A stretch of DNA of 64,000 nt from a virus, in IMG/VR virus record IMGVR_UViG_3300032245_001322, positions 1 through 64,000 of that record; one strand, 5' to 3'. Below are positions 13,742-57,609 of this stretch, in pieces. Numbering within the stretch: the stretch's first letter is position 1; each line of letters begins with the position of its first letter. The notes under the pieces were generated by a model. It saw only the letters and a list, made by a program, of their open reading frames with translations. It was not told where the DNA came from and searched no databases. Made by a program: the position numbers and the translations under genes.

Positions 13742-14377
13742 ATGAGAAAAGACTTATATAAATTTTTTAGCATTCTGATTATAGCCGTTTTGTTATGGCT
13801 ATTGTATGCAATTAATAACAACTTTGATAAAGTTAAAAACAACTTAGATACAATTACTAAAGAACGAGATAAAAATGGTGCTTTAATTGTAACACAAAAT
13901 CAACAAATACTTTCGATGAAGGATGCAATAAAAGTACTCAAGGAAACTAAAAACGTTTCCAAAGTTTCCCAACAAACTCAAATGAGAACGAAAAGTGCTA
14001 TTGTAGAAAAGAAAATACCCGTTTATTTTGAAACTATCAAATACATTGATTCAAATGAGATGGATACTTTTGAGTGGATGCCGTTGCCATATACATTCGT
14101 TTATCAAGATTCTTGGAGTAAATTAGAAGTTACAATTGACCCTTTAGATATTACAATAGATACGATGTATATGTTAAATAACTTTACTATTTCAGTTGGC
14201 GAAAAAAGTAATGGATTATTTAAAAAACCTACACCAATCGTAGAAATTAAATCAGACAACCCTTATACAGATATTACTTCGGTAAAAAATGTCACCATAG
14301 ATACAAAGAAGCCATTTTATAAGACTTTTTGGTTCGGGGGTGTAGTTGGTGCACTTGCAATGATTTTACTTCTTTAA
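13742..14377 (+). CDS. membrane-anchored protein (N-terminal TM)
   Basis: N-terminal hydrophobic helix. Confidence 0.5.
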   Translation: MRKDLYKFFSILIIAVLLWLLYAINNNFDKVKNNLDTITKERDKNGALIVTQNQQILSMKDAIKVLKETKNVSKVSQQTQMRTKSAIVEKKIPVYFETIKYIDSNEMDTFEWMPLPYTFVYQDSWSKLEVTIDPLDITIDTMYMLNNFTISVGEKSNGLFKKPTPIVEIKSDNPYTDITSVKNVTIDTKKPFYKTFWFGGVVGALAMILLL

Positions 14378-14386
14378 AATCCAAAT

Positions 14387-15328
14387 ATGGACAACACGAA
14401 AAAAGCATTAGTTATTGGAGCGACAGGAATGGATGGTTCACTTATGGTGGACTTATTGCTTTCCAAGGGATATTTTGTTTACGCTACTTTTTATAGCAAA
14501 GGCAATTTAAAAGAGCACGAAAATTTAAAGTGGTTCTTTTTTGATTTGTCTGATGAGAATTTAGTCTTTTCGCTTTTATCAATTCACGTTCACGAGAGTA
14601 TTGACGAGGTTTATAATTTTGGTGGCGTTTCTTTTAGCCCCGACTCTATTCGAATGCCAAGTTATACCATGGACGTAAACTATAGAAGTGTCATGAGATT
14701 ATTGGCTTGGGTTGAATATAAGAAATGTAAATTCTTTCAAGCGAGTAGTAGTGAAGTTTTTGGCAAGGTTAAAAATTTAACTTTAAATGAAAATTCACCG
14801 AGAAACCCACATACACCTTACGCTCACGCTAAAAATCTTGTAGATATGATGTTAAGGTATATGAGAGAGCAAGGATACCCCGTTTATAACGCAATATCTT
14901 TTAATCATGAATGCAATCTTAGAGGTGAACAATTCGTAACCAAAAAAATTACAAAGTTTGTTGCTGATATTGTAAATCACAAAAGAGTAGGAAAACTCAA
15001 ATTGGGAAACATACATAGTAAAAGGGATTGGGGTTATGCCCCCGACTTTATTGAGGGTTACTATAAAATGGTGCAAGGAGAACCTCGAGAACTTATATTT
15101 GCAACTGCTCAAACTCATTCTGTTCTTGATATTTTGAATATCGCATTTTCAAGTCAAGGATTAAATTGGGAAGATTATGTTTCGATTGATTCAGAATTAG
15201 TTCGTGAAGATGAAAGAGATAACTTATTGGGCGATTATTCAAAGGCTTGGCAAACTATTCAATGGTGTCCCAAAAAGCATTTTGATGAAATGATAATTGA
15301 AATGGTTGAATTAGAAAAAAATAAATAA
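14387..15328 (+). CDS. gmd: GDP-mannose 4,6-dehydratase
   Basis: Matches Gmd motifs: ALVIGATGMDGS...LLSKGY, DEVYNFG, FFQASSSEVFG, YAHAK, SFNHECNLRGEQFVTKKIT, LGNIHSKRDWGYAPDF. Confidence 0.85.
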   Translation: MDNTKKALVIGATGMDGSLMVDLLLSKGYFVYATFYSKGNLKEHENLKWFFFDLSDENLVFSLLSIHVHESIDEVYNFGGVSFSPDSIRMPSYTMDVNYRSVMRLLAWVEYKKCKFFQASSSEVFGKVKNLTLNENSPRNPHTPYAHAKNLVDMMLRYMREQGYPVYNAISFNHECNLRGEQFVTKKITKFVADIVNHKRVGKLKLGNIHSKRDWGYAPDFIEGYYKMVQGEPRELIFATAQTHSVLDILNIAFSSQGLNWEDYVSIDSELVREDERDNLLGDYSKAWQTIQWCPKKHFDEMIIEMVELEKNK

Positions 15329-15375
15329 TATATGAAAAGAGAAAATTGGACAGACACAAGAAAGGCGAATTTATC

Positions 15376-15936
15376 ATGAAGTTGTTTTTCTTTGATTTAG
15401 AAACCACAGGAGTGCGTTTTTGGAAAAATGGTATTCATCAAATATCGGGGAAAATTGTAATTGATGGAGAGTTGAAAGAGAGATTTGATTTTAAAGTACA
15501 ACCTTATAAGGATGCTTTAATAGAACAAGAAGCCTTGGATATAGCGAAAATAACCAAAGATGATTTATTAACTTATGAACCAATGATTTCGGTTTATTCT
15601 AAATTGCTTTCAATGTTAGGTAAGTATGTTGATAAATTTAATAAAAACGATAAATTTCATTTGGTTGGTTACAATAACGCTTCTTTTGATAATCAATTTT
15701 TTAGGGCATTTTTTACACAAATGGGTGATAATTATTTTGGTAGTTGGTTTTGGTCTGATTCTATTGACGTTATGGTTTTGGCTTCTCATTATTTAAAAAA
15801 TGAAAGGTCAAAATTGACAAACTTCAAACTTTCAAGCGTAGCAAAACATTTAGGGATTAAAGTAGTAGAAGATGATTTGCATGATGCTCAATATGATATT
15901 GATTTAACAGAGAAAATTTATAATATAGTAGGATGA
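15376..15936 (+). CDS. DEDD-family 3'-5' exonuclease (DnaQ-like)
   Basis: Exo I FFDLETTG, Exo II GYNNASFDNQFF, Exo III HDAQYD. Track start 15346 is TTG; ATG at 15376. Confidence 0.7.
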   Translation: MKLFFFDLETTGVRFWKNGIHQISGKIVIDGELKERFDFKVQPYKDALIEQEALDIAKITKDDLLTYEPMISVYSKLLSMLGKYVDKFNKNDKFHLVGYNNASFDNQFFRAFFTQMGDNYFGSWFWSDSIDVMVLASHYLKNERSKLTNFKLSSVAKHLGIKVVEDDLHDAQYDIDLTEKIYNIVG

Positions 15937-16553
15937 TACACAGTTATAGTCAATTTGGTGAAGATAAAATCTTGCAAGATTTCTTCGAATCGGGATACAA
16001 GGGAGTTTGTATTGATGTAGGTGCAACAGATGGTATTGGACAAAGTAATACTTATCATTTCGAAAAACATGGTTGGATGTGTATTTGTTGTGAAGCAAAT
16101 CCCGATATGTACGAGAATTTAAAAATGAATCGCCACAATGCAGTACATTGTGCAGTTGGTAGCGAAGATAAGTTAGAAGTAGAATTTAACGTAGTTACTT
16201 TAACTGCTCAAGGTGGAAATCAAACGGCTATTAGTGGTTTGCAAATAGACCAAAGGTTATATAATGACCATTTGTTTTTGCAACCCGAAGTTAAAAAAAT
16301 TAATGTGCCAATGATGACTTTAAATACTATTCTTAAAAAGTATCCTGCTATCGACAAGATTGATTTTTTATCAATTGATACCGAAGGTACTGAAGTAGAT
16401 GTTATGAAAGGATTTGATATTGCCAGATGGATGCCGAAAGTAGTTGTATTAGAAAACAATTATGACGACAAACATTATGTAGATTACATGGATAGTGTAG
16501 GATACAAAAGAGTTTTAAGAAATGTAGTTAATGATTTTTATATAAAAAAATGA
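15933..16553 (+). CDS. FkbM-family SAM methyltransferase
   Basis: SQFGEDKIL...CIDVGATDG...ANPDMYENL...FLSIDTEGTEVDVMKG pattern of Methyltransf_21. Confidence 0.7.
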   Translation: MIHSYSQFGEDKILQDFFESGYKGVCIDVGATDGIGQSNTYHFEKHGWMCICCEANPDMYENLKMNRHNAVHCAVGSEDKLEVEFNVVTLTAQGGNQTAISGLQIDQRLYNDHLFLQPEVKKINVPMMTLNTILKKYPAIDKIDFLSIDTEGTEVDVMKGFDIARWMPKVVVLENNYDDKHYVDYMDSVGYKRVLRNVVNDFYIKK

Positions 16554-17773
16554 AACACGGAGAAGAAATTTTAGATTTAGGCGAACACTTTGTTAGTGCA
16601 TTTACAGATACGTTCGAAGAAGCGTTTGAAGGGCAGAAATACCCCTTAAAATTAGTTTATGATGAAAACTTGGGATGTCCCGTACTTACAGAACAACCAC
16701 CATTTGATTTAATGTGGGGTAAATATTGGTATCATAGTGGAATCAATGGTAAAATGGTAAAAGATTTAAAAAAAGTAGTTGACAATATTGATGAACTCAT
16801 TTTACCACAAACAGGTGATGTTTGGTTGGATATTGCATCAAATGATGGTACTTTATTAAATTTTGTTAAAAACGAGTACGTTAAGGTGGGGTGCGACCCT
16901 GTTGAAGGATTCATTGCAGAATCATGTAAGCATAGAAGTAATATTTTTATCAATGATTATTTTACGGCTGAAAAATACTTACAAAATGTAACTAAAAAAG
17001 CAAAAGTTATTACTTGTTGTGCAATGTTTTACGACCTTCAAGACCCTATGTCGTTTTTAAATGATGTTAGAGAAATTTTAGATGAAGATGGAATATTTGT
17101 TTTCCAATTCACCTACACACCAAGTATGTTAATGATGGGCGATTTTATGAATATTTGTCACGAACATTATGCTTATCATTCATTTACGAATGTTGCAGGT
17201 ATGTTAGTTCAAAATAAATTTAGCGTTTTTAATGCCGAAATAAATGATGTTAATGGTGGTTCTATTAGAATATATTGTAGAAAAAGTTATAGTCATTCAT
17301 TTTTACCACCATCAAAATATGTGGTAGGAATTGTAAATATGTATGCTTTGCAAACTTTTGAAAAGACTGAAATTTCTTGGGAAACTTTTAAAAAGCATAT
17401 CAATCTTAGCAAAATGAAGTTAGTTGATTATGTTAGAGAAGCCAATAAACAAGGATTATCTGTTTGGGGTTATGGTGCATCTACAAAAGCAAATACTTTA
17501 TTGCAATACTATGAATTGGACTTTGAAGATATTACCAAAATTGCTGAAGCGAACACCGATAAATATGGTAAATTCACAAAAGGTAGTGGAATAGAAATTT
17601 GTAGCGAAGAAGAATGGAGAGAAGCAAAACCAAATCTTACTGTTGTTTTTCCTTTTCAATTTATTGATTATTTTGTAGAAAGAGAAAAAGATTACCTACA
17701 AAATGGAGGTACATTTTTAGTGCCTTGCCCCGAACCTCATTTGATTACAAAACATGGAGTAACGAACTTATGA
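16550..17773 (+). CDS. class I SAM methyltransferase with C-methyltransferase-like C-terminal domain
   Basis: Motif I LDIASNDGTLL. C-terminal VWGYGASTKANTLLQYY...DTDKYGKFTKGSGIEI. Confidence 0.55.
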   Translation: MKHGEEILDLGEHFVSAFTDTFEEAFEGQKYPLKLVYDENLGCPVLTEQPPFDLMWGKYWYHSGINGKMVKDLKKVVDNIDELILPQTGDVWLDIASNDGTLLNFVKNEYVKVGCDPVEGFIAESCKHRSNIFINDYFTAEKYLQNVTKKAKVITCCAMFYDLQDPMSFLNDVREILDEDGIFVFQFTYTPSMLMMGDFMNICHEHYAYHSFTNVAGMLVQNKFSVFNAEINDVNGGSIRIYCRKSYSHSFLPPSKYVVGIVNMYALQTFEKTEISWETFKKHINLSKMKLVDYVREANKQGLSVWGYGASTKANTLLQYYELDFEDITKIAEANTDKYGKFTKGSGIEICSEEEWREAKPNLTVVFPFQFIDYFVEREKDYLQNGGTFLVPCPEPHLITKHGVTNL

Positions 17774-19084: not shown

Positions 19085-19206
19085 GCGTTTAATTATTTGT
19101 TCAAGGGGTGCAACCATTGGCGAAAATTTAAAAAATAAAAGTGTTGCCACCCTTAATGAATACGCACGTTTGAACGAAACAACTATTGACGAAATTTTTA
19201 AAAAAT

Positions 19207-21786
19207 ATGACGAAAGAATTGGACAAAAAAGACACTAAAAGAATATTGTGCTTTATGGATTTTATGTGCCCTACGGGATTTGGTACTGTAGCACACAATA
19301 TTTTAGATAGATTAACACCTTGGTTTAAAAAAATGAACATTGAGGTAGATGTATGTGCATTAAATTACGGAGACAACCCTCATACGAAGTATAACGAGCA
19401 AATAATGGTGCTCAATCCTAAGTTTTTTGCAAGAAACAAAGATGATTTTTATTGGAGGGATGGTGTTTTAAAGATTTTGCAGATAGGAGAATATGATTTG
19501 TTTTTCCCTATGAATGATATTCCCGTTATTAGCCCGATGGGTCGCCATTTACAAGCGTTAAAGGAAGATAAAATTTTTAAAAATAAAAAGCCCTTCAAGA
19601 CCTTATTTTACACGCCAATTGACTCGCAACCATATAGAAGATATTTTAAAGATTTAGAGTTTTTTGATACACTTGTAACATATACAGAATATGGTAAAAA
19701 AGAAATACTTGATGCTTACAAAGTAGTAAGCCCAAATAAAAAAATCAATGTAGAAATTATTAACCATGGTATTGATAGAAAAAACTTCAAACCAATGTCT
19801 AATAAGAGTGAGTTGCGTAAAAAGTATAATATGCCCGAAAATGCATTCATTTGGGGCAACGTAAACAAAAATCAACCCCGAAAGGATATAGGAACTACAC
19901 TTATTGCTTTTAAGTACTTTAAAGAATGGCTAAAAGAGAATCACCCTAACGAGAAAAGTGTTTTGTATTTGCATTGTTATCATTCGGACAATACAGGTAT
20001 CAATTTATATGTAGCCCTTGAAAGACTTGGTTTAACTATTGGCGAAGATGTAATACTTCCTTTAGAAGATAAGTATGTAAGCAATAATTACACTACTCAA
20101 GAGATGAATGAAGTTTTTAATTGTTTTGACGTATTTGTAAATACAACTATGGCAGAAGGTTGGGGGCTTTGTTTAGAATCAAATACCTTAGTTGAAACAA
20201 ATAATGGATTAAAGAAGATTAAAGATTTGCATTTATTTAAAGAAACGCAAGACAAGGTTTTAACTAATGATGGAGAGTTTCATAAAATATTAGATTTTAC
20301 AAGTAGAGATGTAAATGAATATTATATTTTAAATTCAGAATATAATATGGAAGTTTCCGTAACGCCAGAGCATCCATTTTTTGTCACTGATGGAATTTCA
20401 GAGCCATATTGGGCAAATGTTAAGGAATTGATAAATAAGCCAAATATGTACGTTGCAATGCGAAAACCAAAATTAATTAATGTTACGGATTCTAATATTT
20501 TATTAAGATTGGAAAATGAATTGAGTGATTATCAAGAAGATTTTTATTATGAAAATGAATTTGCTTTTTGCAAATATGGGTATTCCCCTTTTAATAAAAA
20601 ATGGAGTATTTCTTCAATAATGAAAAGATATAATGTCACTAAACATACTGTAGAACGTGCTATATTGAAAATAACCAATAATAGATTGTCTAATAATCCA
20701 AATGTTATAGATTTATGTAATAAACTAATTGAAGATGGATTTGAGAAAAACGAACCTATAAAATGCAAATCTAAAATTATAGTAGATGCAGATTTAGCCG
20801 AAGTTTTTGGATGGTATTTAGCCGAAGGCTCAAATGAGAATAGCAATAGAATAGAATTTTCTTTTAATGGAAATTTAATAAATAGTAAAGCAGTTTTTAT
20901 TAAAAACATTTTAGAAAATAAATTTGGATTAAAGTGCGTAATTGATAAAAATGGCAAAAATAAATGTAGAGTCAGAGTATCTAACAAAATTTTAGCAACA
21001 TTATTTGGAGAATGTTTTGGTATTCATGCTGAAAATAAAAAAATACCTCATTGGCTTTATTTAAATGGCGAACTAATGAAAAGTGTATTAAAAGGATATA
21101 TTTTAGGAGATGGACATATTAACCAAAGCAAAAATCACATTTCATATACTACTAAAAGCCCTCATTTAGCATTCCAAATAAGAAGTATATTAATGAGTTT
21201 TAATATAATGTCGGCTATTAAAAAATCAAAAAGAGGGTGTTATTATGTAATTTTTACAAATAATTCTCTTCAAAAAGCAAAATCATTTTTAGGTAATGAT
21301 ATGTGTTTTAGAAATGAAAACACTAGGAGACACAAGCCTAAATACATAGAAACATCTACTCACTTTTTTTCAAGAATAAACAATATAGAATTTGTTAAAT
21401 TAAATGAACCTACTAAATTTTACGATATTTGTGTTGAGAATGAACATAGTTTTACGGCAAATGGTATAATCTGTCACAATACAGTTACTGAAGCGATGAG
21501 TGTAGGAATGCCAATTATTTGTGGATTGCATACTTCTATTAATGAAATTACCGACTATGGAAAATTAGTTTATGGAGTTACGGATATGGTTGAACATTTT
21601 CAAATCTCAGATGCTGAAAATATTCGCTTTAAGTTAAATCCAATTGCAGTTAAAGACCAAATGATAAAAGCATTTGAAAATAGAAACAAACCATTTAGCC
21701 CAAATAAGTATAAACATAAATTCGAGGAATACGATTGGGATAAAATTGCAGAACAATTCAAACAACAAATAAAAAAATTGATATAA
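19207..21786 (+). CDS. GT1/GT4-like glycosyltransferase interrupted by an intein
   Basis: Extein junction AEGWGL | TVTEAMSVGMPIICG reconstructs the GT4 EGFGL--EAM-G-P motif. Track start 19186 is TTG; ATG at 19207. Confidence 0.7.
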   Translation: MTKELDKKDTKRILCFMDFMCPTGFGTVAHNILDRLTPWFKKMNIEVDVCALNYGDNPHTKYNEQIMVLNPKFFARNKDDFYWRDGVLKILQIGEYDLFFPMNDIPVISPMGRHLQALKEDKIFKNKKPFKTLFYTPIDSQPYRRYFKDLEFFDTLVTYTEYGKKEILDAYKVVSPNKKINVEIINHGIDRKNFKPMSNKSELRKKYNMPENAFIWGNVNKNQPRKDIGTTLIAFKYFKEWLKENHPNEKSVLYLHCYHSDNTGINLYVALERLGLTIGEDVILPLEDKYVSNNYTTQEMNEVFNCFDVFVNTTMAEGWGLCLESNTLVETNNGLKKIKDLHLFKETQDKVLTNDGEFHKILDFTSRDVNEYYILNSEYNMEVSVTPEHPFFVTDGISEPYWANVKELINKPNMYVAMRKPKLINVTDSNILLRLENELSDYQEDFYYENEFAFCKYGYSPFNKKWSISSIMKRYNVTKHTVERAILKITNNRLSNNPNVIDLCNKLIEDGFEKNEPIKCKSKIIVDADLAEVFGWYLAEGSNENSNRIEFSFNGNLINSKAVFIKNILENKFGLKCVIDKNGKNKCRVRVSNKILATLFGECFGIHAENKKIPHWLYLNGELMKSVLKGYILGDGHINQSKNHISYTTKSPHLAFQIRSILMSFNIMSAIKKSKRGCYYVIFTNNSLQKAKSFLGNDMCFRNENTRRHKPKYIETSTHFFSRINNIEFVKLNEPTKFYDICVENEHSFTANGIICHNTVTEAMSVGMPIICGLHTSINEITDYGKLVYGVTDMVEHFQISDAENIRFKLNPIAVKDQMIKAFENRNKPFSPNKYKHKFEEYDWDKIAEQFKQQIKKLI
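20170..21480 (+). mobile_element. LAGLIDADG-type intein (437 aa) inside the glycosyltransferase gene
   Basis: Starts with Cys (CLESNTLVETNNG, block A). LAGLIDADG-like FGWYLAEGS and LKGYILGDGHI. Ends ICHN with +1 Thr (block G). Confidence 0.75.
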
Positions 21787-21818: not shown

Positions 21819-21850
21819 GGCGACAACATCGTTGTCGCACCCTTTCCATT
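21819..21850 (+). terminator. possible terminator hairpin after the GT-intein gene (weak U-tract)
   Basis: GGCGACAAC-ATC-GTTGTCGC, then ACCCTTTCC. Confidence 0.35.
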
Positions 21851-22279
21851 CAGTTAACACAGATTAACTATTTGCAAGAATTACTTCTTGTAAATAATGT
21901 AAGCGAGTGCACCGATAATAATTAGGTTGTGAACGTTGTTACCACCTAAAAATTTGTCTGAATTGATATTTAAGAAATCTCCCATAGTGTTACAAATATA
22001 CTATTGGCAAAAGACTCAAAATTATGCATTGGAATATTTTAGAATTGCATATTTAGTAAGTTATTAGTATAGTTGAATATAAAATTCATGCACAAAATTA
22101 TCTTATTAAATTACATTTGTATTTTACACCAATTTTACAAAGTTTTTTCTAACTATTTTTATCAATTATTGAAAAATTATGTCAAAATGATTTAAAACGC
22201 ATTTTTTATTGACCTCAAATGCTTTGCAAATTCCTTGAAAATAGAATTTAATATCTTATTCTTATATTTGTAATGTATT

Positions 22280-24640
22280 ATGCAAAATATTGATTACGAT
22301 TTAGAATACGATAACGCTATAAAAAAAATGGCGTTAGGTGGAGAGACCTCTGCTTTATTTAAAATAGATACCCCAACGGGTGCTCCCTCTAAATTGACTT
22401 ATATTCAACAATTATTAGTTCGCACTAAATCGTTTAAAGAATGGTTTGGTGATTGGGAAGATTTTGCTAATAAAATTGTACAAAGTAGAAAAGACAAAAG
22501 TCCTTTCTATGAAGTTGAAATTATGATAAAGAAAAATTTTGATAAAGACGACAAAAGCAATGGTAATTTGTCGAAGAATCAAAAATTATTATGGATATAT
22601 TTTGAAAACTTTGATATTAAAAATCTTTCTTATACAATTGACTATGACACTTTAGAACCACAAGCATATTGGCATGGAACTAAATCAGAAGAATTTTTTG
22701 AATTTAAGACTTATGTAAGTCGATTTGGTAGACCATACGCTTATTTTGCAGTTAATAAATCTTATAGTGATTTTTTTAGTGCAAGTGAAGAGCATTTATA
22801 TAGTGTTTTTACTTGTATAAAAAATCCATATATTAATTTTAACTATGAACATCAAAACACACTATCCTTTATATCAGAAATATTTATTGATTATGGTTTA
22901 AAGAATAATTTGGATTCGGCTCAAATAGAAAAATTGGCTAAAGATAAAGAATACGATTATATTAAAAAATATGGTATTTCATTTAGTCAAAGTAAAGATT
23001 ATCCATTTTGGAGATTGATGTCCGATGATAGTATGGGTCAATTCAAAATGTTTTTACAATCATTAGGTTATGACGGAGTTATGTATGTTGAAGAACTTCG
23101 ACTCGATTCCGATATAAGTAAAGAAGATGAATTTACAAGAGCCGTTACAATATTTGAACCTAATCAAGTAAAACTTGCAGATGGCAGGAATACTGAATTT
23201 AGTTCTTTAAGTAACGATATACGTTATGAAAAAGGTGGGTTAATTGCTCCTAATGGCAAGAAAAGTAATTTAACTCCCGAACAATATAAACTTGTTCGTA
23301 CTCCCGAATTTAAAAAATGGTTTGGAGATTGGGAAAATGACCCTAAAAACGCAAGTCAAGTTGTAGACGAAAATGGAGAACCTTTAGTAGTTTATCACGG
23401 GACTTATGCAAAAGAGCCATTTTACACATTTGATTTAGAAAAAGCCGATTTAGGTTTCCATTTTGGGACAAAAGAACAAGCAAAAAATCGCTCTACAACA
23501 AAATTTTTTATAGAGGGGTTTAAATCTTATGTAAGTTCTTATTTTTTAAACATAAAACCTTTATTTGAAGTAAGTGATATTGGAGAATGGGAATACCCTC
23601 AAAGATATATTGATATGTTAATTTCAGACAACATAATTGATGAAAAAATTGCCAAAGAAAAAGGGTTTTTAAGTGCTTATTATAGAGAAGACAATGTAAA
23701 AATTCGAGAATATATAAAATCTAAATATGGCAATTTTGTTGGGTTTATTTACAACAATAAATATGAGGGAGATGGTAAATCATTTATTGTACTTTCCCCT
23801 AATCAAATCAAACTTGCAGACGAAACAAACACAACTTTTGATAATGAAAGTAACGATATAAGATATAAAGAGGGTGGTAATATTGACAATAAAATTGCTT
23901 TTATTACAAAATTTGAAAACAATATTTATTGGTTAATATCTAAAAAAGATGATGATTTTTATTATCAAATAGATGGCGATAGAAGATTATATGTTGTCAA
24001 AGACATGGCTAAAAGATGGGGATATAAGTTAGTTTCTGCAAAAGAATATAATGATTATTATGATGTTCCCGAAAGAATAAGGATGCATGAAAATAAAACA
24101 AAATATGAAAATGGAGGCAAAACAACAACAATGAATAGATATTCTCATTTACACGGAATGTTTGGGCAAGAAACCCCAAAATTTGCCGAAGGTGGTTCAG
24201 TAGCAACTGCACACGGAATTACTAACAATGGTAAAAAAGGTGGTTACTTCGATGGTAGAAGTCACGCTGAAGGTGGTATAAAAGCATGGAATTCAACAAC
24301 TAATTCACCAATAGAAGTAGAAGGGGGAGAAGTTATTATCACTAAAAAAGCCGTTGAAGATGATGAATTATACGAATTTGAAGGCGAAATGCTAACAAAT
24401 AGGCAAATATTATCCAAAATAAATGAAAGTGGTGGAGGTGTTAAGTTTGAAGATGGTGGTGAAATTCATCAATGTAATTGTTCGGGTAAAATGTATAAAT
24501 TTGGGGGCGAAACTATGGAAGATTATCAAATAATGAATAAAATAAATTCAACTTATAATAAAAAACAAGGCATGAAAAACCATAAAACTTCTTACGGGCA
24601 CAACCTTATGAGAAAAATGAAAGAAGGAGGATATTGCTAA
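22280..24640 (+). CDS. large internally duplicated protein (two modules with WFGDWE and Y/W-HGT motifs; C-terminal aromatic-x-GG repeats)
   Basis: FKEWFGDWE...YWHGTKSEE and FKKWFGDWE...VVYHGTYAKE. PNQVKLADGRNTEFSSLSNDIRYEKGG vs PNQIKLADETNTTFDNESNDIRYKEGG. ATG 8 nt after TATATTTG. Confidence 0.6.
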   Translation: MQNIDYDLEYDNAIKKMALGGETSALFKIDTPTGAPSKLTYIQQLLVRTKSFKEWFGDWEDFANKIVQSRKDKSPFYEVEIMIKKNFDKDDKSNGNLSKNQKLLWIYFENFDIKNLSYTIDYDTLEPQAYWHGTKSEEFFEFKTYVSRFGRPYAYFAVNKSYSDFFSASEEHLYSVFTCIKNPYINFNYEHQNTLSFISEIFIDYGLKNNLDSAQIEKLAKDKEYDYIKKYGISFSQSKDYPFWRLMSDDSMGQFKMFLQSLGYDGVMYVEELRLDSDISKEDEFTRAVTIFEPNQVKLADGRNTEFSSLSNDIRYEKGGLIAPNGKKSNLTPEQYKLVRTPEFKKWFGDWENDPKNASQVVDENGEPLVVYHGTYAKEPFYTFDLEKADLGFHFGTKEQAKNRSTTKFFIEGFKSYVSSYFLNIKPLFEVSDIGEWEYPQRYIDMLISDNIIDEKIAKEKGFLSAYYREDNVKIREYIKSKYGNFVGFIYNNKYEGDGKSFIVLSPNQIKLADETNTTFDNESNDIRYKEGGNIDNKIAFITKFENNIYWLISKKDDDFYYQIDGDRRLYVVKDMAKRWGYKLVSAKEYNDYYDVPERIRMHENKTKYENGGKTTTMNRYSHLHGMFGQETPKFAEGGSVATAHGITNNGKKGGYFDGRSHAEGGIKAWNSTTNSPIEVEGGEVIITKKAVEDDELYEFEGEMLTNRQILSKINESGGGVKFEDGGEIHQCNCSGKMYKFGGETMEDYQIMNKINSTYNKKQGMKNHKTSYGHNLMRKMKEGGYC

Positions 24641-25974
24641 TGGCAAAAGAGAAAAAAGACCTCATAATTTTTGGGGAAACGTATAAAAACATTGACGTAA
24701 ATACTTATGGAGGCTCATATACTTTGGATACTACAGGTATTGCTCAAGTGATTAAGCAATATGTTAAAAACAATTATGGAGATATAAAAGTTTGGGCAAA
24801 AAGCAGTTCATATTCTATGGGTTCATCTATAAATATATATTTATGGAATGTTCCAAAAGATTGGGTTAAAAAAATTAATGATTTCGCTCAAAGTTTTGGT
24901 CAATACAATGAATATGATGGAGGTGATGGAATATGGAAGGGTCGTGAAGTAGATGCTCAATTAACCGATGGAACGAAAATTGGAAATTGGTCGCCAATTA
25001 TATTTGTTAATAATACACCACCTTATGGCTCAAAAGAATATGATTTGACACCTCCAAATTACGAAGATATGCCTAAACCTAAGAAAAAAGAATACAAGGG
25101 TAAATTCGAAAAAAAAGGTGCTAAATTTAGTCCAACTGACAACCTTGATTTAATTCTTGATTGTGGGAATGGATGGAAAATTTATGTGGGTAAACCAAAA
25201 GAAAAATATCTTTATAAAGCAGTTAAGGACGAAGCAACAGAACCTAATAGAGAGAAGTGGGCTGAAATTAAATCAGATATGCTTGAAGTAGGTTTTCAAT
25301 GGAATTGGAAGGACGCTACATTTGTTAGATGGACGACTAATGCCGATGATACCATTCCACAAATGGCTTGTGATGTTTTAAGCAAATATTGGGCAGGAGC
25401 GAGTCAACCAAAAGCAGAAAATCCCATAAAGCCACAAGTAGTTATTCCACAATGGACTGAATTCGAATTAATAGAAGATGATGGGAATTTAAAAAAGGGA
25501 GATATAGGTGTTTTATCTAAAGATTATTATCCACCAAATACTTTTGTAGATGTATATATGAATTCTGAAGCAAGACCCGATTATAATTATATTATTCCAT
25601 TTAAAAAGATTAGGGTTATTGAAGAAAGCACAAAAGAAGTTTTGCCATTTTATTTAAACGATACAATACAATTAAAAATGCCTTTTCGGTATAATGTTTC
25701 GTTGTATCCAATAGGATATGTTGGTGTTATTAGTTCTATTGATTATGGTCAAAAAGAAGCCTATATAGATTTTGATGGCAATGGAATTACTATACCCGTG
25801 CCTTTTGAATTTATTGAAAAATATGTATCTAAATCACAAACAAAATTAGAAGTTAATTTAGATGAATATATTAGTGACTTAAATTATCTATTAGAGATGG
25901 AAGCAGATGAATCAAAAAGAATGGAATTGGCTACATATATAAGCGATTTAAATACCTTAAAATTATTAGATTAA
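24640..25974 (+). CDS. hypothetical protein
   Basis: ATG overlapping upstream TAA, preceded by AAGGAGG. Confidence 0.55.
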   Translation: MAKEKKDLIIFGETYKNIDVNTYGGSYTLDTTGIAQVIKQYVKNNYGDIKVWAKSSSYSMGSSINIYLWNVPKDWVKKINDFAQSFGQYNEYDGGDGIWKGREVDAQLTDGTKIGNWSPIIFVNNTPPYGSKEYDLTPPNYEDMPKPKKKEYKGKFEKKGAKFSPTDNLDLILDCGNGWKIYVGKPKEKYLYKAVKDEATEPNREKWAEIKSDMLEVGFQWNWKDATFVRWTTNADDTIPQMACDVLSKYWAGASQPKAENPIKPQVVIPQWTEFELIEDDGNLKKGDIGVLSKDYYPPNTFVDVYMNSEARPDYNYIIPFKKIRVIEESTKEVLPFYLNDTIQLKMPFRYNVSLYPIGYVGVISSIDYGQKEAYIDFDGNGITIPVPFEFIEKYVSKSQTKLEVNLDEYISDLNYLLEMEADESKRMELATYISDLNTLKLLD

Positions 25975-25980
25975 AACGAA

Positions 25981-27435
25981 ATGACACAACAAGAAATAAA
26001 TTCAAAAATTGAAGCAATGGAAAGGATTGTAAGCAATCCAAGTACCCCCGAAAGTATTCGCTTAAATGCTCAATCCAAATTAGATGAATTAAAAGCAATG
26101 ACTCCTAAAGTAGAGGAAGTTGTTATAAAAGAAACTAAAAAAGAAAAAAAGGCAAAATCAACTACTGATGGTTCTTCAACTATTGATGCTATGCTTACCA
26201 CATTGAGGGCTATGATGCTTTCTAATCAAGGTGGTGGCATGGATAGTTACGAAGTAAGGAAAATGATTGAAGAGTTCCTTACAACTCGTAAAATCAATTT
26301 AGATGAATTAGATAAAAGCGTTTTAGATGAAATACGCAAAAATCAAATAGTTGTTTTAAGTTTGCCTAAATACGATTTGCAAATTACAGTGGATAAAAGC
26401 ACTGCAATGATACCAAATATTTTCTCTATTTTGGATGATGTATTGGCAGGAAATAACGTTTATTTAATTGGTGAGGCTGGTTCAGGAAAAACCATATCGG
26501 CAGAAAAAGTATCTGAAATATTAAATAGAGAGTATTTAATGTTAAATTGTTCTCAATATACTTCGCCAACTGAAATTTTAGGAGGTCAAACAATCGAAGG
26601 TTATAAGGATGGCAAATTAGTGATAGCATGGAGAGATGGTAAAATATTGGTTTTAGACGAAATGCCTAAACTTGACCCGAATACGGCAGGTTTATTAAAC
26701 GATGCTTTAGCAAAATCTTCTAAAACAAGAAAAAATCCTAAAATAAATTCAACGAACCCAAGCGAACCTCCGATTCCAAGAAATGAAAATTTTGCAGTTA
26801 TAGCAACAGGTAACGTGTATCCGAATAAACCAAACCCAGCAGGATATGTTGGTAACAACCAACAAGATTTATCTTTATTAGATAGATTTAGTGGTAGTGT
26901 TTACTATGTTGATTATTCTCAATATATTGACGAAGAAAGTTGCCGTTATAAGTTTTTATATGATATGCTTGTAGGTAATTATCATGAATATATTAAAGCA
27001 AAAAGAGATGGTAGACCATTGCCTACCCCAAGAGGATTAAGAACGATTATTGAAGCAAACAATATGAAAAATATGGCGTTAGTTTCTTATCGTACAATTA
27101 TTGCCTTTAGAGTAGGTTTTGAAATAGAATTGGTTCGTGCTATTGCCAAAAAACAAGGAGATTCAGATGTTACTAATAAAGGGAAAACGGTATTGTCAAC
27201 TTTTGAAAGTTATTTAGTTGCTTTTGGCGATGATGCTAAACAAACCTTAATTCGTGAAAGTGGATACACCTACGATGAAGTTGAAAAAATAACTAAAAAT
27301 GCTATTGATTTAATCGTCAATGGTGGAGAAAGTGGGTTTGTAGATTCATTGACCCCAATGGTTAAAGAAACGGCTTCTAAAATTTATAGCGAATCAACAA
27401 ATTGGTTAATTGCTGATAAATATATTGTTAACTAA
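25981..27435 (+). CDS. MoxR/AAA_5-type AAA+ ATPase
   Basis: Walker A GEAGSGKT, Walker B ILVLDEM, sensor ATGN, LLDRF motif typical of MoxR-like ATPases. Confidence 0.65.
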   Translation: MTQQEINSKIEAMERIVSNPSTPESIRLNAQSKLDELKAMTPKVEEVVIKETKKEKKAKSTTDGSSTIDAMLTTLRAMMLSNQGGGMDSYEVRKMIEEFLTTRKINLDELDKSVLDEIRKNQIVVLSLPKYDLQITVDKSTAMIPNIFSILDDVLAGNNVYLIGEAGSGKTISAEKVSEILNREYLMLNCSQYTSPTEILGGQTIEGYKDGKLVIAWRDGKILVLDEMPKLDPNTAGLLNDALAKSSKTRKNPKINSTNPSEPPIPRNENFAVIATGNVYPNKPNPAGYVGNNQQDLSLLDRFSGSVYYVDYSQYIDEESCRYKFLYDMLVGNYHEYIKAKRDGRPLPTPRGLRTIIEANNMKNMALVSYRTIIAFRVGFEIELVRAIAKKQGDSDVTNKGKTVLSTFESYLVAFGDDAKQTLIRESGYTYDEVEKITKNAIDLIVNGGESGFVDSLTPMVKETASKIYSESTNWLIADKYIVN

Positions 27436-28736
27436 TGGGATTTACTAAAGTAGACATATCTTCAGTCAAACCTAATAGTCAAACTATCTTATTTGATAGT
27501 TATTTTGACTATGTAGATTACATAAATGATTTAGTCCCTAAATTACAAGGGAATGCTCGGACTGTTTATGATTTGACATTTTCACGAACAACTCTTGAAA
27601 ATGATGCAAGAGATGAAAATTGGTTTGGTACTACAGACCTAAGTCAAGTAACAGACGATGTGACTACTTTTTTATTCAATAATGAATTAAGTCAAGAATT
27701 AGAAGCATTTGACAGACGTAATACAAATATTGAACAAATAGATTTAGAGCAAAAAAAGAAAATAACTTTTACTGCTCAAGAAATTGGAATTTTCTCTTTT
27801 GACCTTGCATCTTTAGGGCTTATTCCCGTAGTTGAATATTTTAGCCCACTATTAAATAGAATTGTTAGTGGCGATGAAGTTCGTTCTTATAAAACGGGTA
27901 ATGGGGATGTGGTTTTTTATCACATTTTCGTTGCCGAAATACCACAACACTATTTAAAACAAGAAAAAGGTAAATTGTTTTCTCCTATTTTAAATATTTT
28001 TGTCAATGAAAATAGTCCTTATGTTATTAAAGAAATAATTGATGGCAAATTTGAATTTATTCATTTAAAAGTAGAAGAAATTCCACGTCACGATGTTCAA
28101 CAAAGACAAGTTATTGGAGATAATGGATTGCCTAAATTTAGTTCTACTTGGAAAAAAAGTTTTATTTATATACCTCAAATTCCTTTTCAGTTACCTCAGA
28201 TAGATATTGTTATTCAAGTCAGTTACAATGCCTATATTCAAGCAAGAAACCAAATGTTTTGGACTTCTGTTGCGGTGAACGCTATTATTGAAAAATTAAG
28301 CAAATCTAATGTTAGATTTAGAATTTATGCAGGAGGTTCAACTTCTTGGGGAACGAACGGAACGAAAATAATAAGTAGTTTTATTAAACTAAAAGATTTA
28401 AACGACCCATTAAATATAAATACAACTTCAATTATTTCTGCTGATGCAAGAAATTTTAGGTATCAATTTTTTAAATACATTATAACTGCTTCTTATGATT
28501 TAGGATATGATGCAGATATTAATACAGGTTTGGGTAGGGCGATTAATGATGTTGATGTTACAAAAAGAAGTCTTATTGAAGCATTGAAAATAAGTAAAGA
28601 TTTTGGAAGTAGTCAAAACGATAGTTTAAATCCTAATACTAAAATTATAATCAATGCTTGTTTAAGTGAAGAAGAAGCCCAAGAGACATTTGATAGAGCG
28701 ATAAGACAAATTAAAAATTTAGAGCAAACGCCATGA
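27435..28736 (+). CDS. hypothetical protein (possible partner of the AAA+ ATPase)
   Basis: ORF immediately downstream with start/stop overlap. Confidence 0.5.
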   Translation: MGFTKVDISSVKPNSQTILFDSYFDYVDYINDLVPKLQGNARTVYDLTFSRTTLENDARDENWFGTTDLSQVTDDVTTFLFNNELSQELEAFDRRNTNIEQIDLEQKKKITFTAQEIGIFSFDLASLGLIPVVEYFSPLLNRIVSGDEVRSYKTGNGDVVFYHIFVAEIPQHYLKQEKGKLFSPILNIFVNENSPYVIKEIIDGKFEFIHLKVEEIPRHDVQQRQVIGDNGLPKFSSTWKKSFIYIPQIPFQLPQIDIVIQVSYNAYIQARNQMFWTSVAVNAIIEKLSKSNVRFRIYAGGSTSWGTNGTKIISSFIKLKDLNDPLNINTTSIISADARNFRYQFFKYIITASYDLGYDADINTGLGRAINDVDVTKRSLIEALKISKDFGSSQNDSLNPNTKIIINACLSEEEAQETFDRAIRQIKNLEQTP

Positions 28737-29418: not shown

Positions 29419-30216
29419 ATGAGACATACTACAAATACTTTATCCACTTTATACAGGTCTATTGACCAAACAAAGATTTCTGATAAAGCAAAGGAAACAT
29501 TAAAAAAATTGCGTTTAGCAACGGGTAATTTTGTTGGTAAAGACGAAGAAGCAAAACAATTATTTGTTGATTTTTTTAACAAGTTAAAAGAAAGTAAACC
29601 TATTGCCGTTAAGACAACTCCCGAATATAAAAAGGCTTTGAGAGATGCTCAAAGAGAGAGAGGTAAAGCCCTTGGCGAAAAAAGGAAACAGAAATCTAAA
29701 GAGCCCAAAGGTACAGGGAACGAAATTGACGCAAGTAGACCTGCAAAACCTTTTGGATGGAGAATGAGGGGTAAACATAATTACAAAAAACCTACAAGAG
29801 CAGACATTACAGAAGGAAGAGCGTATTACGAAGGACGTGTTAATCGTGCAGATGTAAAACGTAAAAAATATCCTATGTTAGAGCGTGGTGGCTATATGGC
29901 TGAAGGTGGTATGATTAACCATGGCTTTAGAAGTGGAGATAAAATCATTGAAATTTACAAAGGATATGGCATTATAGAATCAAAAGATATTGTTGAAGTA
30001 ATTGACCCTTCAAGAGGTTCTCGCTATGTTGTAGACCATGGAAATACTATGGACGAACAAATTGATGGTGCAAAAAGAATGATTGATAATATGACCCCTA
30101 TAGAACTTGTAGATAGAATTGAAATAGGAACAGATAGAAATGGTTCTATGGATAGACGTGGAGTTGAATATGCTAAAGGTGGAGTATTTTACACCGAAAA
30201 ACACAAAAAAGATTAA
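29419..30216 (+). CDS. basic protein with aromatic-x-GG repeats
   Basis: LERGGYMAEGGMINHG, YAKGGVFY. Lys/Arg-rich N-terminal half. Confidence 0.55.
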   Translation: MRHTTNTLSTLYRSIDQTKISDKAKETLKKLRLATGNFVGKDEEAKQLFVDFFNKLKESKPIAVKTTPEYKKALRDAQRERGKALGEKRKQKSKEPKGTGNEIDASRPAKPFGWRMRGKHNYKKPTRADITEGRAYYEGRVNRADVKRKKYPMLERGGYMAEGGMINHGFRSGDKIIEIYKGYGIIESKDIVEVIDPSRGSRYVVDHGNTMDEQIDGAKRMIDNMTPIELVDRIEIGTDRNGSMDRRGVEYAKGGVFYTEKHKKD

Positions 30217-31085
30217 TGATGAAGTTGTTTACAAAAGACATTGATAAAAAGTTATTTGCTCAATTCCCGAAAGGTGGGGATTTAGCAAATCAAAAGGTAA
30301 TTGCTAAAATATTTAATCCTTATGGTCGTGGAGTTTGGTATATAATTAATTCAGACCCCGATGACCCAGATTATTTATGGGCTATTGTTAACTTATTTGA
30401 AGTTGAAGTAGGGAGCGTTTCAAGAAAAGAACTTGAATCTTTAAGAATAAAGCCATTTATGTTGCCTTTAGAGAGAGATTTATCGTTTCGTGAAAGAAAT
30501 GCTTTAGAGGTATATAAAGGTGTACAAGGTGGCGAAAGATATGAGCATGGTGGGGAGTTAGAAATGGGTATCAAAAAAGAAATGGAAGAGCATGGTATGT
30601 CAAAAGAAGAGGCTACCAAAACGGCTATAGACCACTTGAGAGAAAATCCTAAATACTATACATTGCTTGAAAAATTCAAATTAGCAGGTGGTGGCGTAAC
30701 GAGAAAACATAAAATTACCTTGTATGAAAGTAAATTAATGGCTGAAGAAGGTAAACGAGTTTTAGTATCTCAAGATGGTCAACAATTTTATACTATTGAA
30801 GAAGGTGTCCTATACAAAACTGATGATGACTTAAATCATCAAGAAAAGTTTGATATGGATAAAATAAAGTTAATTATTTTACCTATGGAAAGTTATGAAA
30901 GTAAATTTGCAAAAGGTGGTTTAACATTTGATGAAAAAGTTAAAGCAGTTAAAAAATCATTAATGAGTAGAGATGTTCCTAAAAAATATCGAAATTTGTA
31001 TGGTAAAAAATACGATAAAGATGAAGCAGAGGAATCTGCTAAAAAAATTATTGGGGCACAAGTAAAAAAATACAACAAAAAATAA
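30216..31085 (+). CDS. protein with aromatic-x-GG repeats
   Basis: YEHGGELEMG, LAGGGVTRKH, FAKGGLTFDE. Confidence 0.55.
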   Translation: MMKLFTKDIDKKLFAQFPKGGDLANQKVIAKIFNPYGRGVWYIINSDPDDPDYLWAIVNLFEVEVGSVSRKELESLRIKPFMLPLERDLSFRERNALEVYKGVQGGERYEHGGELEMGIKKEMEEHGMSKEEATKTAIDHLRENPKYYTLLEKFKLAGGGVTRKHKITLYESKLMAEEGKRVLVSQDGQQFYTIEEGVLYKTDDDLNHQEKFDMDKIKLIILPMESYESKFAKGGLTFDEKVKAVKKSLMSRDVPKKYRNLYGKKYDKDEAEESAKKIIGAQVKKYNKK

Positions 31086-55317: not shown

Positions 55318-57609
55318 ATGTTAGTCAACATTATAGGTAATAGCATTTCGTCTAATGCTCAAGCATCGGGCTCTATAACTTATGAACCATTTGTTTTTCA
55401 AGTAACAGTTACAAATGGTCAAACGATAACTTTGCCTTATTATGTTGATGGTGAATATACGGGAAATATAGATTGGGGAGATGGAAATACAAGCGTAAAT
55501 AGTTATGCAAATAGGCAACACACTTATTCCATAGGTTCAAAATATACAATTAGAATACAAGGAAGAGTAAAAAAATTTTCTTTCGTTTCGTTAACGGCAT
55601 CAGAAAGATTATATATCAATGAAATAGTTTCGTGGGGCGATTTTGAGCCAAGTTCTGTTGGAAGTACTTTTATTGGATGTACAAATTTGGATTGTAGAAC
55701 TACAACTGATTATTTAAAAATAAAATCAGATACGAACTTAACCTCTTTTTTTCAAGATTGCAATCAAACAATTTTTACTTCAATTAATAATTTAACATTG
55801 TGGGATTTAAACAATTTAGTTTTATACAAAACATTGTCAAAAATGTTTTTAAATTGTTTATATTTTAATCAAAGCATAAATTCTTGGGATGTATCAAATA
55901 TTACAAATATGTCATATTTATTTGCATCAACTATTGCAGGTTATCATTCATTTAATCAAAGTTTAAGCAATTGGAATGTTTCAAATGTTACTGACATGAG
56001 TTTCATGTTCACGGCAAGTTCTTTTAATCAACCTTTAAGCACATGGAATGTTTCAAATGTTACTACGATGCAATCAATGTTTCAAGCATCAAATGCATTT
56101 TCGCAAAATTTAAGTAATTGGAATGTTTCCAATGTTACAACATTCCAAGAAATGTTTGCACTAAGTGTATTTAATTCAGCAATAAATTGGACTATGGGTG
56201 GTAACTCAACTATAAATGTTAGTTTATACTTGATGTTTAGTGAAAATATAAACTTTAATCAACCAATAAATTCTTGGAATACTTCAAGAGTTACTAATTT
56301 AAACAATACATTTGGTAGAACTTTAAATTTTAATCAAGCATTAAATTTGTGGAATACATCCTTGGTTACTGATATGAATGGGACTTTTCGAGGTACAAGT
56401 GCAGTAAATAAATCAATTTTCAATCAAGATATTAGTTCATGGAATACATCAAATGTTTTGGATATGACACAAATGTTTGATTATAGCAATTTTAACAATG
56501 GTGGTGCAAGTTTAAATAGTTGGAATACTTCAAAAGTAACATCAATGTCAACAATGTTTAGAAATACTCCATTTAATCAAAATATTACTTCTTGGAATAC
56601 ATCAAATGTTACTACGATGCAACGTATGTTTCTCAATGCAACTTCATTTAATCAAAATGTTGGTGGGTGGGATGTATCAAAAGTTACAACGATGTCAGAA
56701 ATGTTTAGTGGAGCAAGTGCATTCAATAACGCAAGTAATTCATCAATAGGTTCTTGGAATGTTGGGTTAGTTACCAATATGTCTTCTATGTTTTCAAGTA
56801 GTCCTTTTAATCAAAACATAGGGTCTTGGAATACATCAAATGTTACTACAATGGCTTCAATGTTTGCAACGGCAACTTCATTTAATCAAAATATTGGTGG
56901 GTGGGATACATCAAAAGTTACGACAATGGCTTCAATGTTTAATGGGGCAACAGCATTCAATAACGCAAGTAATTCATCAATAGGTTCTTGGAATGTTGGG
57001 TTAGTTACGACAATTCAAACAATGTTTAGGAGTTCTGCATTTAATCAACCTATTGGAAGTTGGAATGTTTTAAACGTGACTAATATGAATGGTACATTTC
57101 AAACAAATACTGCATTCAATCAAAGTTTAAGTTCTTGGAATGTAGGGAAAGTTACTACATTCCAAAATTGTTTTAGTGGAGCAACTGCTTTTAATCAAAA
57201 TATTGGTTCATGGAATGTTTCTTCTTGTACCATTTTTTCTAATATGTTTACGTCTGCAACATCCTTCAATAATGGTGGGTCAAATACAATAAATAATTGG
57301 TCATTAAATACTTCTACATCAATAACGATAGCAATGCAATCTATGTTTCAAAGTGCAACTGCTTTTAATCAACCAATTAATAATTGGGTAATATCAAGAG
57401 TTAATAATTTTACCAATTTTATGGCAAATAAAACTAACTTAAATTATTCAGCATCTAATCTTGACGCTATTTATAACACTTGGTCAACAATATCAAGAAT
57501 AGCATCATTATCAATTAGTTTCGGGACAATAAAATATACTGCTGGGGGTTCGGCAGGAAGGGCTATATTAGTGGCAACACCATGGACAATAACTGACGGA
57601 GGAATATAA
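55318..57609 (+). CDS. DUF285 (BspA-like) repeat protein, candidate receptor-binding/adhesin
   Basis: About 20 repeats of FNQ-I--WNVSNVT-M--MF; intragenic near-identical duplications. Confidence 0.65.
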   Translation: MLVNIIGNSISSNAQASGSITYEPFVFQVTVTNGQTITLPYYVDGEYTGNIDWGDGNTSVNSYANRQHTYSIGSKYTIRIQGRVKKFSFVSLTASERLYINEIVSWGDFEPSSVGSTFIGCTNLDCRTTTDYLKIKSDTNLTSFFQDCNQTIFTSINNLTLWDLNNLVLYKTLSKMFLNCLYFNQSINSWDVSNITNMSYLFASTIAGYHSFNQSLSNWNVSNVTDMSFMFTASSFNQPLSTWNVSNVTTMQSMFQASNAFSQNLSNWNVSNVTTFQEMFALSVFNSAINWTMGGNSTINVSLYLMFSENINFNQPINSWNTSRVTNLNNTFGRTLNFNQALNLWNTSLVTDMNGTFRGTSAVNKSIFNQDISSWNTSNVLDMTQMFDYSNFNNGGASLNSWNTSKVTSMSTMFRNTPFNQNITSWNTSNVTTMQRMFLNATSFNQNVGGWDVSKVTTMSEMFSGASAFNNASNSSIGSWNVGLVTNMSSMFSSSPFNQNIGSWNTSNVTTMASMFATATSFNQNIGGWDTSKVTTMASMFNGATAFNNASNSSIGSWNVGLVTTIQTMFRSSAFNQPIGSWNVLNVTNMNGTFQTNTAFNQSLSSWNVGKVTTFQNCFSGATAFNQNIGSWNVSSCTIFSNMFTSATSFNNGGSNTINNWSLNTSTSITIAMQSMFQSATAFNQPINNWVISRVNNFTNFMANKTNLNYSASNLDAIYNTWSTISRIASLSISFGTIKYTAGGSAGRAILVATPWTITDGGI
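56630..57045 (+). repeat. intragenic near-identical direct duplication (~180 nt units about 235 nt apart) in the DUF285 gene
   Basis: GCATTCAATAACGCAAGTAATTCATCAATAGGTTCTTGGAATGTTGGGTTAGTTAC at ~56718 and ~56953. TTTAATCAAAATATTGGTGGGTGGGAT at ~56646 and ~56883. Confidence 0.65.

Follow-up and report, generated by a model that had tools for sequence, protein, structure and literature searches.

What kind of protein is encoded at positions 22280 to 24640 of virus record IMGVR_UViG_3300032245_001322, and what might it do to an infected host? The window analyzed here is the whole stretch from position 1 to position 64,000 of that record (64,000 nucleotides [nt]). The open reading frame (ORF) comes from an uncultured freshwater phage, lies on the plus strand, runs from ATG to stop, and encodes 786 amino acids (aa). 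The region is strongly AT-rich, with a G+C content of 27%. An initial annotation, made from the letters alone, had described an internally duplicated protein with possible ADP-ribosyltransferase (ART)-like modules. The 786-aa ORF and all of the motifs that it quoted are real. The gene is real, since an identical protein is present in the public protein collection (P0001) and homologues are numerous (2407 at E <= 1e-5 among 8000 scored candidates). From the ORF list, the homologues, and the Pfam match to PF18760, the gene comprises a leader, module 1, module 2, a linker domain, and a C-terminal domain that we call T. The protein is a further member of the published ART-PolyVal family and not a new kind of system.

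The family was assigned with Pfam. The whole protein matched PF18760, ART-PolyVal ("ADP-Ribosyltransferase in polyvalent proteins"), with 75.4 bits. The gathering score of this family is 31.2 bits, and each module exceeds it alone. Module 1 scored 40.4 bits over aa 126 to 307 (nt 22655 to 23200), and module 2 scored 51.5 bits over aa 363 to 520 (nt 23366 to 23839). The same family was present in 120/120 of the best homologues. Other libraries returned little. The NCBIfam search gave no match for the 786-aa protein, and the PHROGs search gave only families labelled "unknown function." The 50,697 GenBank phage records contained no close relative; the top tblastn match had 29% identity over 35% of the protein. 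The definition of ART-PolyVal is a computational one, from Iyer et al. 2017 (PMC5512222). The domain is described as the commonest macromolecule-modifying one in phage polyvalent effectors. Up to 12 copies occur in one protein (PMC5512222).

The fold agrees with the family. Searched by sequence against the Protein Data Bank (PDB), the 786-aa protein had no match at E <= 1. With a profile of module 1, the three best PDB matches were the PARP12 catalytic domain at an E value of about 0.2, which is weak alone. In this alignment the HGT of module 1 falls on the HGT of PARP12, and its YFA falls on the SYFA of PARP12. AlphaFold models were made from alignments of homologous modules. The module 1 model had a mean pLDDT of 89.4 and a pTM of 0.89. 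Module 2 was modelled within aa 323 to 786, and its pLDDT was mostly above 90. Foldseek against the PDB with module 2 and T placed AcrIF11 (6KYF) at the top (E 0.014, prob 0.96), followed by exotoxin A, diphtheria toxin, and tankyrase 2. For both module models the retrieved structures were nearly all of the ART fold, chiefly from the diphtheria-toxin/PARP (H-Y-E) group. They included PARP15, PARP4, PARP1, tankyrase, diphtheria toxin, exotoxin A, and AcrIF11. Scores were moderate, but we consider the fold assignment sound because the match lists are almost purely ART. The suspicion that the modules were ART-like was therefore well founded, and we regard membership in ART-PolyVal and an ART fold for both modules as close to certain.

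The two modules are homologous but not alike in size. Module 1 spans aa 31 to 322 (22370 to 23245, plus strand) and contains 292 aa with a complete H-Y-D triad. Module 2 spans aa 323 to 533 (23246 to 23878, plus strand) and contains 211 aa with a variant H-H-V triad. WFGDWE starts at aa 55 and aa 347. HGT is found at aa 132 (WHGTK) and aa 373 (YHGTY), and PNQ[VI]KLAD is found at aa 294 and aa 507. SNDIRY[EK][KE]GG closes the modules at aa 311 to 320 and aa 524 to 533. The initial annotation had given both modules about 290 residues and a spacing of roughly 70 residues from WFGDWE to HGT. Neither figure applies to module 2. From WFGDWE to HGT, module 1 has 77 aa and module 2 has 26 aa, and an insert of ~50 aa with three helices lies between the two motifs in module 1 only. 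BLASTP of aa 1 to 322 against aa 323 to 786 gave 57 bits, an E value of 2e-13, and 26% identity. Because of this E value, the repeat is real homology.

Conservation was read from an alignment of 203 distinct modules from the 120 best homologues. It extends beyond the Pfam model on both sides. On the N-terminal side, P.G..S.L...Q..LVRT..FK.WFGDWE forms two short helices in both modules, with pLDDT above 93. In module 1 these helices are aa 41 to 46 and aa 50 to 56. The WFGDWE of module 1 (aa 55 to 60; 22442 to 22459, plus strand) is near-invariant in the 203 modules. On the C-terminal side, NQ[IV]KLADG.N..F forms the last strand and is followed by DIR[YF]..GG. The module 1 copy, PNQVKLADGRNTEF...SNDIRYEKGG (aa 294 to 320; 23159 to 23239, plus strand), contains VKL as the last strand of the model. 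The residues Q, K, L, A, D, G, N, F, D, I, R, and GG of this junction are 93 to 100% conserved in the 203 modules. The most widely conserved piece is the N-terminal junction together with strand 1. It has 57 to 64% identity over about 70 to 80 aa in three other phage proteins: a 4675-aa DarB-like protein (Pseudoalteromonas phage), a "methyltransferase" (Shewanella phage), and a crAss-like phage protein. We also considered x-E/K-G-G at the module ends as protease processing sites. Neither the protein nor its neighbourhood has a recognised peptidase and nothing else supported the idea, so it was set aside as speculation.

The describers of ART-PolyVal placed its active site at a His in strand 1, a Tyr in strand 2, and an Asp in strand 5, and grouped the domains with the Tox-ART-HYD2 clade (PMC5512222). 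Module 1 matches this H-Y-D definition when its residues are placed by alignment and by the secondary structure of the model. H132 (codon 22673 to 22675, plus strand), in strand 1 (aa 129 to 134), is the predicted NAD+-binding His. Y155 (22742 to 22744, plus strand), in strand 2 (aa 154 to 157), is the predicted nicotinamide-stacking Tyr. Conservation and the model support both, as do the HGT and SYFA alignments to PARP12. D265 (23072 to 23074, plus strand) lies directly before strand 5 (aa 266 to 272) and is the predicted catalytic Asp, by conservation, by the model, and by the published family description (PMC5512222). Its column was invariant in alignment A3, and module-1-type sequences have H-Y-D in 76/76 cases. 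Across the 203 modules, the strand 1 column contained H in 199. The strand 2 column contained Y in 123, H in 45, and F in 25. The column at the start of strand 5 contained D in 160, V in 19, I in 8, and N in 8. The catalytic Glu of an H-Y-E enzyme, which the initial annotation had expected at this last position, was not found there; module 1 has Asp at this site and module 2 has Val. On the alignment and the model, module 1 is likely to be catalytic.

Module 2 departs from the family at two of the three positions. H373 (23396 to 23398, plus strand) is the strand 1 His (aa 371 to 377) and falls in the conserved column, as the model also indicates. By alignment and model, H394 (23459 to 23461, plus strand) takes the place of the family Tyr in strand 2 (aa 393 to 396), within the motif ADLGFHFGT. 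V487 (23738 to 23740, plus strand) takes the place of the catalytic Asp before strand 5 (aa 488 to 492), by the same two lines of evidence. Module 2 is one of a subtype of 31 modules with H-H-[V/I/G]. The motifs ADLGFHFGT, YPQRY, and Y.N..E are strongly conserved in this subtype, ADLGFHFGT at no less than 95% within the 31. E498, from the conserved Y.N..E, was considered as a substitute acid. It lies in the hairpin after strand 5 in the model.

These replacements raise another explanation, namely that one or both modules are pseudo-enzymes that catalyze no transfer and whose ART fold serves as a scaffold to bind a host protein, NAD+, or ADP-ribose. The case is stronger for module 2 on account of H394 and V487, and inactive PARP-like folds (PARP13, RCD1, and TASOR) are among the structure matches. 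Against this, the module 1 triad is intact in 76/76 relatives. The module 2 subtype is itself conserved, with 66 to 73% identity across otherwise different proteins, which argues for a selected function. PARP10, PARP12, PARP14, and PARP15 (H-Y-I/L) have no catalytic Glu and still mono-ADP-ribosylate, and for this reason module 2 is not necessarily dead. We would give the pseudo-enzyme explanation a serious hearing, at clearly less than an even chance. The activity of module 2 is uncertain from its sequence.

The word "duplicated" in the initial annotation was correct as to homology. A recent tandem duplication was rejected. DNA at the junctions within the gene is 71 to 73% identical, and module 2 is far nearer to the modules of other proteins than to module 1. 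The second module of P0002 has 97% identity to it, the first module of P0004 has 87%, and modules in many differently built proteins have 66 to 73%, against 26% for module 1. By these sequence comparisons, the gene joins two different subtypes of module and reflects module shuffling, not duplication. The homologues are built in the same manner. One complete module was found in 53 homologues, two in 50, three in 14, and four in 2. Fusion partners in the homologues were DUF5661, DUF5824, DUF3140, GNAT, N6-methylase/Eco57I, and a DNA polymerase III beta (sliding-clamp) domain. The N-terminal leader is 30 aa long, MQNIDYDLEYDNAIKKMALGGETSALFKID (22280 to 22369, plus strand), and its sequence is kept in the closest relatives. 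It has 67 to 93% identity in P0002 to P0012, regardless of the count of modules that follow it.

The remaining 253 aa (aa 534 to 786) lie outside both modules and had no place in the initial annotation. The linker region (aa 534 to 639; 23879 to 24196, plus strand) contains a small, poorly modelled domain with pLDDT below 50 and no Pfam match. Of the relatives, just P0002, P0004, and P0011, which are among the closest, also have this domain. P0002 is a 967-aa orthologue (contig L001, 10001 to 12904) with an extra insert of ~200 aa between module 2 and T. This insert contains a phosphoribosyltransferase-like motif, "FIVDNVIGTGVTMKNA", that Pfam does not recognise.

The T domain spans aa 640 to 786 (24197 to 24637, plus strand) and was delimited by conservation among homologues. 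Its core is about aa 648 to 752, with the motif GKKGGYF.GRSHA.GGIKA...PIEVEGGEVIITK...EFEGEMLTNR.ILS.IN.SGGGV.FEDGGE...C.CSGK.YK.GGE. T is C-terminal in 79/85 of the homologues that bear it, and stand-alone T proteins of about 100 to 260 aa also exist. Its model has medium confidence (pLDDT 60 to 90). In Elizabethkingia phage TCUEAP1, a PhageMin_Tail (tape-measure-type) protein of 1227 aa ends in a T-like segment, with 42% identity over 84 aa (E 1e-13). On contig L007, a gene with T only lies between an SNF2 helicase gene and the gene for a 1478-aa ArdA protein.

An exact look-up of the 786-aa sequence gave no contig, so gene context was judged from the window and from relatives on contigs L001, L003, L004, L006, and L007. 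The syntenic order on freshwater metagenome contigs is a glycosyltransferase gene, the ART/T gene, an LPD29-like gene, an AAA_5 ATPase gene, a DUF7192 gene, further genes, and a DUF2958 gene. The product of the ART/T slot differs from contig to contig. It is T alone in L006 (174 aa) and leader, module 1, and T in L003 and L004 (492 aa). In the window it is leader, module 1, module 2, linker, and T (786 aa), and in L001 it is the 967-aa form with a further insert. Because the contents of the slot differ among syntenic contigs while T stays, T is the fixed component of the slot, and its variable cargo consists of the ART modules.

The genes that follow contain other domains of the polyvalent type. 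A 446-aa LPD29-like protein (24634 to 25974, plus strand) overlaps the end of the ART gene. Its LPD29 match is weak (15.3 bits, below the cut-off), and its N-terminal 230 aa are homologous (E 4e-19) to the protein at the same position in L006, which has a recorded LPD29 match. The genes for an AAA_5 (MoxR/CobS-like) ATPase and a DUF7192 protein (25981 to 28736, plus strand) were assigned by Pfam, PHROGs, and synteny with L001, L003, L004, and L006. This pair lies downstream of the ART/T slot in all of the relatives examined. A protein with DUF2958 (Pfam, 45.8 bits) and DUF5661 (26.5 bits, just missing the cut-off of 27) is encoded at 30216 to 31085 (plus strand). DUF5661 is the commonest ART-PolyVal fusion partner among the homologues. 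By its predicted domains, the part of the window between 22.3 and 31 kb resembles an island of separate genes for domains of the polyvalent-protein type, as if a polyvalent protein had been split.

The best explanation of the 786-aa protein as a whole is a modular ART-PolyVal phage effector that would be injected or act early, depend on NAD+, and modify the host. We judge it probable, if by no wide measure. With T4 Alt as the analogy, Iyer et al. postulated that members of the family are delivered together with the DNA and then modify host proteins (PMC5512222). From the family, the fold, and the gene context, we infer the following course. Module 1 would bind NAD+ and transfer mono-ADP-ribose to a host macromolecule, most likely a protein, early in infection. 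The purpose would probably be to disable defence or to seize host machinery at the onset of infection, as with T4 Alt and AcrIF11. Module 2 may work without a catalytic acid of its own, as the H-Y-I/L mono-ART PARPs do, or may be a non-catalytic binding module. T would probably anchor the cargo for incorporation into the virion or for ejection, and the ART modules would be exchangeable cargo. Delivery or an anti-defence role is hinted at because a T-like segment ends a tape-measure-type protein, the T-only gene of L007 lies between SNF2 and ArdA genes, LPD29-like and DUF2958/DUF5661 proteins are neighbours, and relatives of the junction and strand 1 segment occur in a DarB-like protein and in proteins of crAss-like phages. 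By these analogies, we put delivery in the virion at somewhat under an even chance.

Several points weigh against this reading. The triad positions were placed by alignment and modelled secondary structure. In module 2, the family residue is replaced at two of these three positions. T matched no Pfam or NCBIfam family and no structure in two PDB searches, and the role given to it is a guess. No experimental or biochemical study of any ART-PolyVal member was found in the searchable literature, and the assignment is by homology and fold. Pfam and PHROGs recognised no structural gene within about 10 kb on either side, in the window or in the relatives. There was no portal, capsid, MuF, zincin peptidase, or virion RNA polymerase (RNAP) in the protein or the adjoining genes. 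In polyvalent proteins a zincin-like metallopeptidase hub domain is common without being required, and late or virion genes, MuF, a virion RNAP, or a conjugation locus would point to delivery with the DNA. The neighbours are sugar-modification genes and the AAA+/DUF7192 pair, and packaging is argued only by analogy. The polyvalent label of the initial annotation is upheld at the level of the family, by PF18760 and by homologues that are giant polyvalent proteins. Its suggestion of injection is an analogy, with no adjoining virion gene to support it.

The main rival is the same enzyme produced inside infected cells but left out of the virion, as T4 ModA/ModB and AcrIF11 are. T would then be a targeting or oligomerisation domain. 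The surroundings are non-structural (glycosyltransferase, methyltransferases, AAA_5 ATPase, and DUF7192), and MuF, portal, and peptidase associations are missing. AcrIF11, the nearest phage relative with a solved structure, is an ART that is expressed and not packaged. The upstream gap of ~490 bp with its terminator suggests a transcription unit of its own. This explanation has to contend with a tape-measure-type protein that ends in a T-like domain and with family members in giant DarB-like and crAss-like RNAP-associated proteins. The domains of the neighbouring genes were, moreover, defined in polyvalent proteins. We find an unpackaged enzyme rather unlikely.

A bolder extension of the effector reading is that T is a delivery or anchoring module shared with the C termini of tape-measure proteins. 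T would define a hot-swappable effector slot in a freshwater phage lineage, with products from T alone to multi-module forms. ART modules would be shuffled in and out of it at the junctions LVRT..FK.WFGDWE and NQIKLADG.N..F....DIR[YF]..GG. The H-H-[V/I/G] "GFHFGT" subtype would be a new ART variant, with acid-independent catalysis or NAD+/ADP-ribose sensing. Taken together, these proposals are tentative, and we think it unlikely that all of them hold.

It is still less likely, and in our view improbable, that the modules are active on something other than protein. The target could be DNA or RNA (as for DarT and Tpt1/KptA) or a small molecule (as for Arr), or the modules could hydrolyze NAD+. 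The top fold matches are protein-modifying enzymes, though the score differences are small, and the describers of the family place ART-PolyVal with protein-modifying ARTs. A chance or low-complexity repeat of an AT-rich ORF, which the 27% G+C and a tail rich in short x-G-G motifs might suggest, is refuted by the E value of 2e-13, the two Pfam matches, the thousands of homologues, and the confident folds, and it has a negligible probability.

Other features of the neighbourhood were noted. On the minus strand, the intergenic gap of ~490 bp upstream of the ART gene contains a small ORF (21820 to 21985) for a 35-aa hydrophobic peptide, MGDFLNINSDKFLGGNNVHNLIIIGALAYIIYKK, and a strong hairpin terminator follows this ORF at 21838 to 21820. 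The sequence TATATTTG (22263 to 22270) is found 10 nt upstream of the start codon for the ART protein, and several other gene starts have a similar TAnnTTTG box close upstream. TAnnTTTG resembles the Bacteroidota -7 promoter element. It is not enriched in the window (133 against 123 expected) and is a weak hint as to the host. A scan for sigma-70 promoters performed no better than on shuffled sequence.

PHROGs returned nothing for most of the neighbours. For the AAA_5 ATPase, the best PHROG match carries the label "porphyrin biosynthesis." An intein with a LAGLIDADG endonuclease splits the glycosyltransferase gene that lies directly upstream of the ART gene (19186 to 21786). The glycosyltransferase of L001 is intein-free (421 aa). 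In L001 it is the AAA_5 ATPase gene (14254 to 16737) that is enlarged, coding for 827 aa compared with 484 aa, and its LAGLIDADG match is faint. The location of the intein thus appears to differ by gene between the sister genomes. At 55318 to 57609 the window encodes a 763-aa protein of DUF285 repeats (Pfam 476 bits, 7 stretches), with PHROG matches of unknown function.

The result mainly confirms a call that was made from motifs in raw sequence, and it leaves knowledge of the family unchanged. The domain family, the multi-copy arrangement, and the proposed role were published in 2017. The conserved junction extensions, the H-H-V subtype, and the T domain with its variable-cargo slot may be new. 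The protein is a compact test case, with a canonical H-Y-D module beside a variant one. Its natural relatives carry no module, one, two, or more in this slot, and the protein would suit tests of ADP-ribosylation of host targets and of T-directed packaging.

Among known systems, the protein is closest to ART-PolyVal. Both modules score above the family threshold, module 1 has H-Y-D, several copies occur per protein, and the origin is a phage. Two fusion partners of the homologues, GNAT and N6-methylase, are known for the family. It differs in that no zincin peptidase, MuF, or virion RNAP is found in or beside the protein, and in the H-H-V variant of module 2. Conserved segments also extend each module beyond the Pfam model (LVRT..FK.WFGDWE on the N-terminal side and DIR[YF]..GG on the C-terminal side), and the protein ends in a T domain that is in none of the searched libraries.

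By fold, the nearest group is the H-Y-E ARTs (diphtheria toxin/PARP), but the modules have Asp or Val at the Glu position and resemble this group without belonging to it. AcrIF11 (PDB 6KYF) is likewise a small diphtheria-toxin-type ART with His, Tyr, and a catalytic Asp (D115), from a phage/plasmid anti-CRISPR. Its identity to the modules is 11 to 12%, with no match at the sequence level. It is a single domain of 130 to 170 aa that is expressed in the cell and targets N250 of Cas8f, whereas the 786-aa protein has no CRISPR link. The H-Y-I/L PARPs (PARP10, PARP12, PARP14, and PARP15) include the best profile match, PARP12, and have no acidic third residue, as in module 2. They are eukaryotic, and they keep the Tyr where module 2 has His.

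T4 Alt is the functional model, as a phage ART that is delivered with the DNA and modifies host proteins at the onset of infection. It belongs to the R-S-E clade (Alt/VIP2), another branch of the ARTs, and packaging has been shown for Alt, whereas for the 786-aa protein it is a proposal by analogy. Giant polyvalent proteins, such as the P1 DarB-like protein of Pseudoalteromonas phage vB_PalP_Y7 and the crAss-like RNAP-associated proteins, share the junction and strand 1, or a whole module at about 30 to 35% identity. They contain thousands of residues and many enzyme types, whereas the 786-aa protein has ART modules and T only. An "LYHGT...GTYFS" segment lies around residues 1400 to 1600 of gp27 of cyanophage A-4L, which would be chain B of PDB 9K3A, a solved capsid-internal ejection complex, if that chain is gp27. 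Polyvalent proteins as a class join several domains, typically of unrelated activity, in a single polypeptide of a phage or conjugative element. By domain count the 786-aa protein contains four or five domains with one enzyme type (ART), together with T and the linker, and the polyvalent-type domains beside it are encoded by separate neighbouring genes.

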